DNA of 64,000 nt, from NCBI GenBank assembly GCA_030390025.1, contig CM059452.1, positions 7,254,001-7,318,000 of the forward strand. Reading direction: 5' to 3'. The stretch is from Squalus acanthias (lineage: Eukaryota). Under the pieces are notes generated by a model. The model was given only the letters and a program-made list of their open reading frames with translations, ran no database searches and was not told the DNA's origin. Shown in pieces: positions 56,760 to 60,803 of the stretch. Position numbers and translations under genes: made by a program. Within the stretch, counting starts at the first letter, position 1; each line of letters starts with the position of its first letter.

Positions 56760-58910
56760 TTACAATAACCAGGCATCACCTAAACTGGCAGTTGCAGTTT
56801 TCTATAATGAAAAGAGCATAGTGCCCATTCAATTCCATTCTTATAACTCTTCCTATGTCGAAAGGAGGTACATTAAAAAAGAAAGGGTCATGACTATGGT
56901 AGTCCAATGCCTCATCAAGGCACGAACCCTTCAAGGGAAATACCCCATTACCATCTATACTGAGATTCCCGATTTAAGATCAGTATTGAGGATGGCCTCT
57001 GATGAAAAAAGAGCCACCCAGATCCGATATGATAAATGGGCATCGTTCTTGAATGATCCTACACTCATTTTTAAATTCCTCTCCCCGGAAATGGACTTAG
57101 AGCATCTTCCCATCATGGAGGATCATGATACGGAGGAGGGAATCAGACAAATACCTATGAGACCGCTTACAGAGTAACATCAAGTCATTTACTGTGATGG
57201 ATCGTCAATGACGATTAAAAAAGGGACATCCCAACAATCCTCAGCTGGGATGGGGATAGTAGTAGGGACTTTTCGAGATTCCTATTCTTTTCATCCAGAA
57301 GAATTACTGTCCATACCCCTTGGCCATAAGACAGCGCAATATGCTGAAGCCGCAGCATTACGGTATGCTTTAGAAAAGGCAGACCCTATTAAACCCACAC
57401 TAATCTGTACGGATAGTGACTATTGTAAAAGAGGATATACCCAAGATCTAGTTTTCTGGGAACAAACAAATTTTACCAATCATAAGTGTAAACCCATAAA
57501 ACATAAGTCATTGTGGGAAGACATTCTCCGTTCGAGAATAGAGAAACAGAATTGTCAGGTGATTCATGTAAATGGGTATACCACTGGGACAGTACACTCA
57601 AAAGGAAACAGTCTTGCAGACGAACAAGTGAAACGTTCGGTCTGCATGACACCCCCTCGAGAGGGGCCTGACAATATTAGTGTAATCACTAGGGCAGAAC
57701 GGGCAGCTAATCAGGATCAGGAACGGATTCAGCTATTAGACCCAACAAAAGAGAATCCACCAGGATATCCACCAAAGTACTTTTACTCGGAAACCCCTAC
57801 GGGTATTGTGCTAGTTAAGTTGCCCAAGGGAAACCGAGAAGTACCCCCGAGACACAAACTAGAACAGCTTGTAAAAGAAGCTCACGAGGGCATAGGTCAA
57901 GCACATTGTGGTTCCAGAACAACATTCTGCAAATTGACCCCCTTATATTGGTGGCCAGCCATGCTTAAGTCCTGTAAAACATACGTGGCAAATTGTGAGC
58001 CATGCAATTTAACCAATAAGTCATCACTAATTAAGCCACTACCAGTAGCTCCTGTGAAAGCTGATGAGCCAATGGGAAAATTCTTTATTGAATTTATTGG
58101 ACCACTTCCCCCGTCTTTGGGATACAAACATGTTTTCGTTTGTGTAGATGGATGCACTTCCTTCTGCTGGCTGGTACCCCACAAACTGATTCGGAAAACG
58201 CACTCGCCAATGCTATTACTGACATAATTACTGTAGCTGGTGCATCCAAAATCTTACACTCCGATCAAGGCGGAGCCTTTGTCTCCAAGGTCTTCAAAGA
58301 CTACTGCGAACAAAGGGGGATTGGGATAGAGCACAGCACGCCACGTCATCCGCAATCAGCGGGGCTGGTGGAACGTAAAAAACAGGAAGTAAAAAAGCTA
58401 TTGGTCAAACTGTTGAGAATCAGGGGAAATAAGTGGACCACCGTCATTCCGGAGGTGCAGCTATCACTTAATAATGTGCTCGCATCTGCATCAGGGACAG
58501 TGGCCCTAAAACTCCATATTATCTGATGTATGAGATGGAGCTGCATACACCGCTTACCCATAGTTCTTTTATTGCCTCTACACTCTCTGAGTCCTTGACC
58601 CGATAGCGATGGTTAGATTTAGAAATATAAGTAACAGAGGAGATTCATCAAATTGATCAGAGGATAAGGGAGGCATATAGGCAGAAAAAATTGACAAACA
58701 AAGCATGGCAACCCCTAGCAGGAGAATGGGTACAGGAAAAGAAGTTCGAGCAAAAACCTGGTTTGAGACCGAAGTGAAAAAACCTGTTCAAATACATACT
58801 GTTATTAACAAAAGAACAGTTAAAATACATATTAATCAGCCGAATGGCAAGCATATTCTTAAAACTGTATCCATAGACAATCTCAAAAGATGTCCTGCGG
58901 GATACCGAAA
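56760..58910 (+). pseudogene. pol: Foamy-virus-like pol 3' half (RT connection, RNase H, integrase), disrupted
   Basis: LIKA...RYDKWASFLNDP; YCDGS...SAGMGIV...SIPLGHKTAQYAE...TDS...GNSLAD; GYPPKY NED; H-H-YWWP-CxxC; FFIEFIGPLPPS; HSDQG; PQSAGLVERK; VSIDNLK. Colinear with prototype foamy virus Pol as recalled. Stop at 57177, frameshift near 58180, further stops downstream. Confidence 0.9.
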
Positions 58911-59119
58911 TGGAGGAACAATACAAGGTGCAGTCGCACACTGTCTTTCAAGACCCAGCTTGGAGCACGACACAGGAAATGGATGCGATCGAATTACTGA
59001 CGACAGTCAGTCAGACGGTGTCGCCGACTCCTCCACACGATGCTTGGCAAAGCCTCAGGAATTGGATTCGCGAAAAGCAACAAATGAAACAAGGAAAGAT
59101 CAATGAGTTACTTCAATGA
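58910..59119 (+). pseudogene. env: Putative foamy env 5' remnant (leader peptide)
   Basis: ATG lies inside the pol ...RNGG codons just after VSIDNLK. SLRNWIRE resembles the foamy TLQQWIIW motif. Confidence 0.6.
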
Positions 59120-59535
59120 AGGAGGAAGACACTGCGGATGAAGAAGGAATCAACTGAGTGCCTGGCAAGGCCTTTACGAAAACAAGAATCTGTCCATACG
59201 CCGGATCGAAGGAATAGCGTGTCAAGCTTCAGCTAGTTCCAAATGACATCTACTTGACTCGTATGAATAACTCACCTCTACAGAACGTACATCTGCCAAT
59301 TGGACATTCTAAGTACATGTTGTTTAGCTAATTGCATGACAATGTTCCTATCATCCTTTTAAATTATGTTCAATTTAAAATAAGGCAAAACATTGTCCTA
59401 GGATGACTTAAAAGGAATTTTCATGCAGCACATGATTGTGAATCTCGTGAAATTAATGTGCTATTGTAACCTTATTAGTAACATTGACCAAACTCTGTCT
59501 TGATGCTCCAGTTCAATTTTTGGTCAAGAGGGGGG

Positions 59536-60803
59536 TGTGAAGGAATAAGCAATATACATATTCAGAAAAATACACCATCCTATAAAAGAATTCTGACTTT
59601 ATTAAAACATGACATACTAGGGCTTGAAAATCTAAAAACCTAACAATGGAGAAGCTGTAAACAGCATACAGGCTTTTGAGATAAGATAAGTTGCTGACAC
59701 TGAATCAATAGCCTTATTGAAACAGGAGGTTGGAGGTTACTGAAAGTCTGAAGCCTTGGACAGAACACAATGGTATACCCTGTTAAGGTGTCTTAAACCA
59801 ACACTTCGGAAAGAATCACATAAGATTAAGAAACATATGCCTTCGTAAAAATGACATGAAATGAAACAAAGGTTCCTGAAGTCTGTGTTACAACCAGTTG
59901 AGGGAGCTAAGAAGACAATGGTGCACCCGGTTGAGGTGTTCTAAATGCAAACAGAAGACCTTGGCAAGAATGACATCAAATAGATGCAACAGCTCCACAC
60001 AGTTTTTTATGATAAGCTTCGAACATCTAAAGGTAGAGACACGATTCTTAATGCTACCAGCTGAACTGACTGTAAGAATAGAAGGGGTCAGCAGAAAAAT
60101 GACTAGAGATAATTAGCTTACATCAGCAGAAAACTTCAAAGGAAATACCACTGAGAAAGGGTATAAAAATTGGACTTTCAAATGGGATGATAGATTCGCT
60201 GAAAGGGGCAAAGCGATTCTCAGGCTTCAGAGGCATGCTCTGTAAGTCTTCAACTCTTTGAGTCTCGGGGATTAATGGTATTGAAAGGTATTTGATTTTG
60301 GTGGATATCCTGGAATAAACTAAAAACTGTAAGACTAGCGAAGTTAAGATTTGAGAATAAGGATCTCTGATAATAAGATTGTAAAAGATTTTTGTATTTG
60401 GAACTGTTAATGTTGCGATTGAATCACCAACTGTAAATTACATGTCGGTTCTTTAATAAATCTATATATTTTTAGAATTGTCTCACATAGTACTTCTGTA
60501 TCAAACTCGCGAACTCAATACACTCTTTGGTGAGGAGTTGCAGAATTCTGGGGGAGTTTTCCGGACCCACATAATCTCCGGAATGTTACAGTCTAGCTAA
60601 ACTTATTAAAAGTGCTATCTGGAGGACGGTAACATCTTCAGGCTGTTTCTTTCCTTTAGGGAGAGATAGTCTGGACCTTTAGACCCAATTAAGCGTCTTT
60701 AGGATTCGGCTACCTGTAACTTTAGTTGAAAGTGAACGTCTGGGGAATACACCTGATCCGGGGTAGCCCTAAAGGGGCTAGGACTGGTAATTATCCCTTC
60801 ACA
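59536..60803 (+). mobile_element. 3' LTR of the foamy-like ERV (1268 bp)
   Basis: PPT AAGAGGGGGG at 59526-59535. Termini TGTGAAGGAATAA...TTATCCCTTCACA form a 13-bp inverted repeat with one mismatch. TATAAAA at 60162, GTAAGT donor at 60242, AATAAA at 60314. Confidence 0.88.

Follow-up and report, generated by a model that had tools for sequence, protein, structure and literature searches.

Endogenization is described as difficult for foamy viruses (PMC10581153, in part), and the part of PMC3185757 that deals with their intracellular retrotransposition calls it open whether this is natural or a vector artefact. Among foamy-like elements, those of teleosts have been described with gag and env genes that lack detectable foamy homology (PMC5210030, in part), whereas the family described here matches both the foamy Gag and Env profiles. 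Foamy virus Pol is normally made from its own spliced RNA, although in-frame fusions still support replication of prototype foamy virus (PFV). A true foamy endogenous retrovirus (ERV) of cartilaginous fish, CFEFV, rooting to the vertebrate foamy viruses, was reportedly described by Wang, Chen and Cui (2023, J Virol). Here we analyze a 64,000 nt stretch of the Squalus acanthias genome (GCA_030390025.1, contig CM059452.1, positions 7,254,001-7,318,000), referred to as the window and numbered from its first base, which at 56770-60801 contains a foamy-virus provirus reduced to its 3' half: pol connection domain, RNase H, integrase, a 5' remnant of env, a polypurine tract (PPT) and a long terminal repeat (LTR; Table 1). 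The window copy is a 5'-truncated, broken endogenous foamy virus belonging to a family that carries one env deletion and probably multiplied by intracellular germ-line retrotransposition.

An earlier note on this DNA proposed a foamy-like retrovirus whose connection domain, RNase H and integrase are colinear with PFV Pol, followed by a PPT and a complete LTR. All of this is borne out, and the foamy assignment more strongly than 'foamy-like' would imply. The window pol matches Pfam families RT_RNaseH, RNase_H, Integrase_H2C2 (6e-14), rve and SH3_11, and in PDB it best matches PFV integrase (5e-30, with the core at 2e-24) and foamy RNase H; competing matches are weaker, at 5e-5 for Ty3 and 5e-7 or weaker for other retroviral integrases, mostly of HIV-1. 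In sister copies, pieces of open reading frame (ORF) match Gag_FV_central (3.5e-16), Spuma_A9PTase (PF03539, 7.5e-9) and SH3_11, and their Gag also matches foamy Gag structures in PDB (4e-7). This Gag has a central capsid domain, a Gly/Arg-rich tail and no Cys-His box (CCHC), and the position of the YXXLGL motif reads HDLLGL in 33 copies. Env-bearing copies match Foamy_virus_ENV (PF03408, up to 1e-21) and foamy gp130 structures in PDB, and their Env is of the long-leader type. The primer-binding site (PBS) lies two bases past the LTR in sister copies and is presumably of the tRNA-Lys1,2 type; the PPT abuts the LTR directly in the window and in one env-type copy, and in many copies the tract ends TG before the LTR. 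In a reverse transcriptase (RT) tree of 19 rows, built under LG+G4 without a mixture model and using the RT of a sister copy, the shark family together with one protein (P0024) is the sister of six foamy Pols with support of 98/98. Gag, protease, RT, Env, PBS and the length of the target duplication together place the family with the true foamy viruses.

The loss of most of env, which the earlier note rightly reported but counted as decay of the window copy, is inherited family-wide. All 120 scored genome matches to the RNase H-integrase (RH-IN) piece are 81-100% identical, and long copies have the order LTR-PBS-gag-pol-short env remnant-PPT-LTR within ~8.6 kb. We fetched 74 pol-selected copies, 33 leader-selected copies, seven env loci and 25 LTRs. 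The same short distance from pol to LTR was seen in nine of the first ten copies; among 64 further pol-selected copies the deletion junction is shared by 51 cleanly and by one with a later insert, one has another deletion and 11 are unreadable, while the leader-selected copies share it in 17 cases, are unreadable in 16 and never contain the middle of env. The readable junctions sharing the deletion thus number 52/53 and 17/17 respectively, and env loss is therefore not decay of the window copy but a mark inherited across a large replicating family, the deletion spanning ~3.2 kb when set against one env-bearing copy. Contigs span the junction in all seven sequencing runs examined, which carry six other organism labels, so the deletion is likely older than their split. 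No run listed with the family is labelled RNA; four are possibly RNA, and X17, one of the seven, is possibly so. Splicing as the origin of the env and gag-pol deletions was rejected, there being no GT..AG at the junctions. Exact 4-bp target duplications flank 22 of 26 proviruses and 13 of 15 measurable solo LTRs, indicating independent insertions.

The env start recognised in the earlier note is real: the remnant resembles the N-terminus of the env-bearing copies, which continue into Foamy_virus_ENV, and in the window it stops short of the leader's hydrophobic segment. Foamy Env matches occur at seven or more loci, all broken, against ~300-500 proviruses, seven being a lower bound because the Env search used a stricter first look. 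These loci have gag and pol closely related to those of the env-less copies (~85-96% nucleotide identity) and a different U3. No bel/tas gene was recognisable in the ~550 nt between env and LTR of one env-bearing copy, where three short ORFs lack a Pfam match, the copies being decayed and no genome-wide Foamy_BEL search having been made. Because env-bearing relatives also have only this ~550 nt, with no recognisable ORF, the deletion of accessory genes that had been proposed is unsupported.

Long LTR-to-LTR copies and solo LTRs, which the earlier note advised looking for, are both present in the genome. Pattern counts were used for copy number, to which the 10,684 first-look candidates do not correspond. 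Exact junction 21-mers number 123 in the genome and exact PBS patterns 135 (controls 0 for each), and scaling by the hit rates in sampled copies (29/70 and 23/56) gives ~300 and ~330 proviruses, likely underestimates; a leader search yielded 441 candidates, and the overlap of two match lists, counted by hand, suggests ~500. Exact LTR ends number 2672 of the env-less type against 261 of the env type, giving ~6,100 env-less LTRs after scaling by a hit rate of 66/151; an LTR-end pattern taken from the window copy found no match among 151 sampled ends, so it was not used. Nineteen of 20 evenly spaced matches to the env-less LTR pattern on one contig have no adjoining internal sequence. In dating by LTR divergence, also advised, 22 of the 26 proviruses have LTR pairs that are 2.3-4.7% apart, the other four pairs (6-17%) being mostly of unequal length and likely misaligned, and at a rate of 0.5e-9 per site per year, uncertain but assumed as in PMC10699275 (in part), the insertions are roughly 23-47 Myr old. 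A copy tree of 80 rows (one dropped) is star-like, with end branches of ~2%.

Many copies carry further deletions. In two main deleted subfamilies (16 and 29 of 64 copies, two of the 29 assigned by eye) the leader is joined to the start of RNase H, so that they retain the leader with 57-115 nt from the start of gag, ~1.7 kb from the 3' part of pol, and the PPT and LTR; this sample was selected on 3' pol, the retention of which was thus required. They make up 5 of the 33 leader-selected copies, among which two single copies lack integrase. At least four more internal deletions recur in unlinked copies (L105/L106/L110/L111/L122/L050; L053/L066/L073/L127/L133; L103/L131; L080/L115), and from their structure these recurring deletions appear to mark further non-autonomous subfamilies.

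Selection was assessed in env-less copies only, comparing variants shared by at least four copies with single-copy variants and excluding CpG columns. Synonymous and non-synonymous changes number 19/6 among shared against 122/353 among single-copy variants in protease-RT (PR-RT), 44/46 against 165/563 in RH-IN (p 1e-6), and 11/15 against 117/388 in gag (p 0.03). No synonymous-type enrichment of shared variants was seen in the non-coding control, the 59187..59525 region (p 0.49); the env remnant gave p 0.014, but with no third-position skew and with overlap with pol. Since the shared pol variants are mostly synonymous, pol was likely still functional after env was lost, and its maintenance under apparent selection makes it likely that the lineage retrotransposed inside cells. 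PFV offers a precedent, in that budding requires Env, reverse transcription takes place in the producer cell, and Env-deficient virus re-integrates in the same cell, a process whose natural relevance is called open (PMC3185757, in part).

We propose that an infectious gag-pol-env foamy virus would have entered the germ line, leaving the seven env loci and at least 261 env-type LTR ends, and that a single genome would then have lost ~3.2 kb of env. Because foamy capsids cannot bud without Env yet reverse-transcribe in the producer cell, the env-less capsids would have re-integrated their DNA there. Shorter derivatives that retained leader and 3' pol would have been copied in trans, and most insertions would have been reduced to solo LTRs. 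The window copy itself inserted in a LINE (long interspersed element) among T-cell receptor (TCR) V segments, lost its 5' half, and was duplicated together with its flanks.

The gag-pol layout slightly favors Pol having been made as a Gag-Pol readthrough or fusion product. The codon at the gag/pol border in 49 copies is UGA in 33, UGG in 10, UGC in 4 and another in 2, with UGA in env-type and env-less copies alike, and gag and pol share a reading frame in 13 of 23 measurable copies. A Met between the border and the protease motif is absent in 37 of 39 copies, whereas the Pol Met of PFV, bovine (BFV) and equine (EFV) foamy viruses lies 20-23 residues ahead of that motif. An in-frame Met ~25 codons upstream of the border is present in two copies with env-type LTRs; the position is Ile in 30 others and unreadable in seven. 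A fish retrovirus and a frog ERV are listed with comparable UGA-AG contexts in a part of PMC13517186 in which foamy viruses are not mentioned. P0024, a Logan protein of 1687 aa, is a single open frame in which ~540 residues precede the protease motif and RT, RNase H and integrase follow it, and is possibly a natural Gag-Pol fusion judging by this arrangement. It is sister to the shark family in the RT tree (96/96, on a long branch) and not in the RH-IN tree, and its N-terminus has no match to the family's Gag (E 1.2). A scan of viral contigs found no relative, and when the RT piece was searched against proteins of near length a single match came up, carrying a gypsy-like domain set. A conserved 151-codon ORF in the +1 frame of gag has no Pfam match and is best explained by composition.

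Membership in some other group, be it gypsy retrotransposons, lokiretroviruses, teleost-type foamy-like ERVs or other class III ERVs, is very improbable. It could draw on the gag-pol layout, unlike that of foamy viruses, on trees that hold no named lokiretrovirus or ERV-L sequence (nor a coelacanth or CFEFV one), and on the RNase H/integrase phylogeny that the earlier note called for: identity is highest to foamy viruses (35-41%), but the family falls outside the mammalian foamy clade in an open fork with amphibian ERVs (81/76). These points are outweighed by the spumavirus-specific Gag, protease and Env matches, by PR-RT scores of 363 bits to PFV versus 213-225 for teleost-type proteins and 116 for Ty3, and by approximately unbiased (AU) tests on RT that reject trees joining the family to the teleost pair (p=0.005) or to gypsy (p=1e-6), and the idea is largely refuted. 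Helper-dependent reinfection, in which env-deleted genomes were packaged with the Env of co-resident env-bearing proviruses and reinfected germ cells, has more to recommend it and is still rather improbable. Internally deleted copies without gag and RT show that trans-complementation took place in the family, and the env type, with its at least 261 LTR ends, overlaps in age with the env-less type; its LTR pairs stand at 96% in one copy, 92-94% in three and 87% in one, so env-less genomes may have had access to a helper envelope. The env-less lineage nevertheless retained its own pol under apparent purifying selection, its LTRs outnumber the env type by ~10:1, and Env-deficient PFV is able to re-integrate intracellularly (PMC3185757, in part). 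Intracellular retrotransposition, the reading we prefer, has more than these overlapping ages to contend with: support for env-less monophyly is only 0.79 in the star-like copy tree rooted on an env copy, sampling was biased to the copies most similar to the queries, feline foamy virus (FFV) is described without detectable retrotransposition (PMC3185757, in part), and no copy of the 3' PPT was found in pol, where mammalian foamy viruses have a central PPT duplicate.

Further points on that side concern the expression of Pol. Frame shifts separate gag and pol in five plus five of the 23 copies, with 16 of 39 unreadable, and, given its base composition, there is nothing exceptional about the hairpin that follows the gag stop (shuffles, z -0.9 to -1.5), although it is nonetheless among the most stable local windows. 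A different possibility, which we consider unlikely, is that in the infectious ancestor Pol was translated from a spliced RNA with a start codon of its own, as in mammalian foamy viruses, UGA marking non-autonomous copies and stop-free copies supplying the proteins. The in-frame upstream Met in two copies with env-type LTRs, the sense codon at the border in 14 of 49 copies and the lack of significance of the hairpin would suit it; with a sense codon, however, Gag runs into Pol without a stop, and where the border is UGA the upstream Met opens no more than a short peptide. The 37 of 39 copies without a Met from border to protease motif and the UGA common to both types of copy also argue for a readthrough or fusion product over an own start codon.

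The window copy is a dead, ordinary fragment. The earlier span of 56760-60803 captured the element with slightly wrong ends, the viral part being 56770-60801 and 60802-60803 belonging to the host LINE. Stops occur at 57175, 58604, 58628 and, in the env remnant, 59117; these had been anticipated together with one frameshift, in place of which the integrase has three frame breaks relative to one sister copy, near 58180, 58500 and 58775, plus two stops. The first catalytic position of integrase does read E, as previously noted, in the window copy and its local duplicate only, with D in 85 of 87 motif matches of the other fetched copies. Loss of the 5' LTR, gag and the RT core was likewise correctly described and is confined to this insertion, truncated at 56770, and its duplicate. 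The latter, a segmental duplicate in inverted orientation that takes in the ERV and its two flanks, lies at G000:C29 ~6.92-6.94 Mb (L001, L002); it shares the 5' truncation, is 98.4% identical across the element, implying an age of ~16 Myr at the assumed rate, and retains the 5' part of the V segment that the window has lost.

Table 1. Features of the element and its immediate surroundings, in window coordinates.
Feature	Position	Strand	Basis
TCR-type V segment, 3' remnant with recombination signal sequence (RSS), ~1 kb upstream; context, non-viral	55594..55712	+	
pol connection (tether) domain	56770..57174	+	Pfam RT_RNaseH; sister copies align from 56770 on
RNase H domain, stop at 57175 just before	57178..57640	+	Pfam RNase_H (2e-17); PDB, foamy RNase H (1e-24)
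Integrase (N-terminal extension, zinc finger, core, SH3 tail) to pol stop	57709..59106	+	Pfam, PDB matches
env 5' remnant, ~92 codons of leader-peptide region, overlapping pol end	58910..59186	+	56-82% identity to env-bearing copies; by-eye alignment
Family-wide env deletion junction, ~3.2 kb missing vs one env-bearing copy	59186..59187	+	
Non-coding stretch, env to PPT	59187..59525	+	Aligns with env-bearing copies downstream of env
PPT, abuts LTR directly	59526..59535	+	Sequence
3' LTR, 1266 bp, TG...CA, terminal inverted repeats	59536..60801	+	Ends set by other copies' target duplications
Host LINE, 3' part (provirus insertion target); 5' part absent here	60802..61480	+	Continues LINE copy at 15639-16462

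The immune locus proposed earlier is confirmed by V-set exons with RSS inside the window and in both adjoining 10-kb stretches, the latter containing, in both orientations, several V exons of TCR type that carry 23/24-spacer RSS. There is a weak V-set match within the window at ~7050-7345 on the minus strand. At 30710-31460 a J segment (WGQGTMVTVT; 23-spacer RSS) lies ~350 bp from an Ig-heavy-like V exon (12-spacer RSS) that faces it, and no D segment was detected in the interval; from its layout this pair may be a TCR-associated Ig-like V (TAILV, a name used in PMC12227049). Tandem arrays with units of 27, 67, 55 and 52 bp lie, together with several LINE fragments, at 890-2550, 3225-4130, 17960-18600, 27240-28470, 34930-36840 and 47320-49250. 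The position of the element among V segments looks incidental, and no influence of the element on the locus is shown.

Taken at its fullest, the family would be a deep-branching true foamy virus turned LTR retrotransposon, with one env deletion, ~6,000 intracellular germ-line insertions, natural minimal 'foamy vectors' reduced to the packaging regions, and Pol made by UGA readthrough or Gag-Pol fusion, a picture that we offer tentatively. If it is true, mammalian foamy viruses would have acquired their separate, spliced pol mRNA later. A one-frame gag-pol in a lineage outside those viruses bears on when separate Pol expression arose. A foamy family with a single env deletion and thousands of insertions also provides a natural case for the question of intracellular retrotransposition.

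The shark family shares with the exogenous Spumaretrovirinae (PFV and simian foamy virus, FFV, BFV and EFV) the Gag central domain, A9 protease, Env family, Lys-type PBS, 4-bp duplication and absence of a Cys-His box, at 39-42% identity in RT and 35-41% in RH-IN. It differs in lying outside their clade, in having gag and pol in one frame with no Pol Met, and in lacking env in nearly all copies; the WxxW of the mammalian foamy Env leader is not found in its Env, where the two Trp are six residues apart. As a true cartilaginous-fish foamy ERV, CFEFV is said to occupy a position that fits the family's place in the RT tree; the family is possibly distinct from it, and since CFEFV is known here by title only, the lineage may already be known. 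The foamy-like ERVs of fish and a chimaera, namely AciFLERV and CmiFLERV (PMC5512871), ERV-Spuma.0-Sca (PMC10699275) and teleost ERVs (PMC5210030), likewise have a foamy-related Pol and Lys-type PBS, as well as the 4-nt duplication and a GGGTG at the PPT/LTR border, but they group with or near ray-finned-fish elements, whereas the shark family does not group with the teleost proteins tested. In the literature we found no account of a foamy family or burst amplified without env, of this gag-pol layout or of foamy readthrough, which two key J Virol papers may cover. The two commonest deleted subfamilies retain regions that minimal PFV vectors need (CAS-I and CAS-II, out of CAS-I, CAS-II and CAS-III; PMC3185757, in part), a parallel that is positional only and drawn from a sample in which 3' pol was required. 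For tuatara ERV-Spuma-Spu only 165 of 1959 foamy-like pol matches lie near env, and the part of PMC6669660 describing them does not treat the env-lacking matches as a replicating lineage. Env loss with a large gain in copies is a feature that the family has in common with MuERV-L and IAP, which are not foamy viruses. Such env-less amplifying ERVs were reportedly termed 'genomic superspreaders' by Magiorkinis (2012), and the shark family behaves as one, with one shared env loss, independent insertions and purifying selection on gag-pol afterwards.

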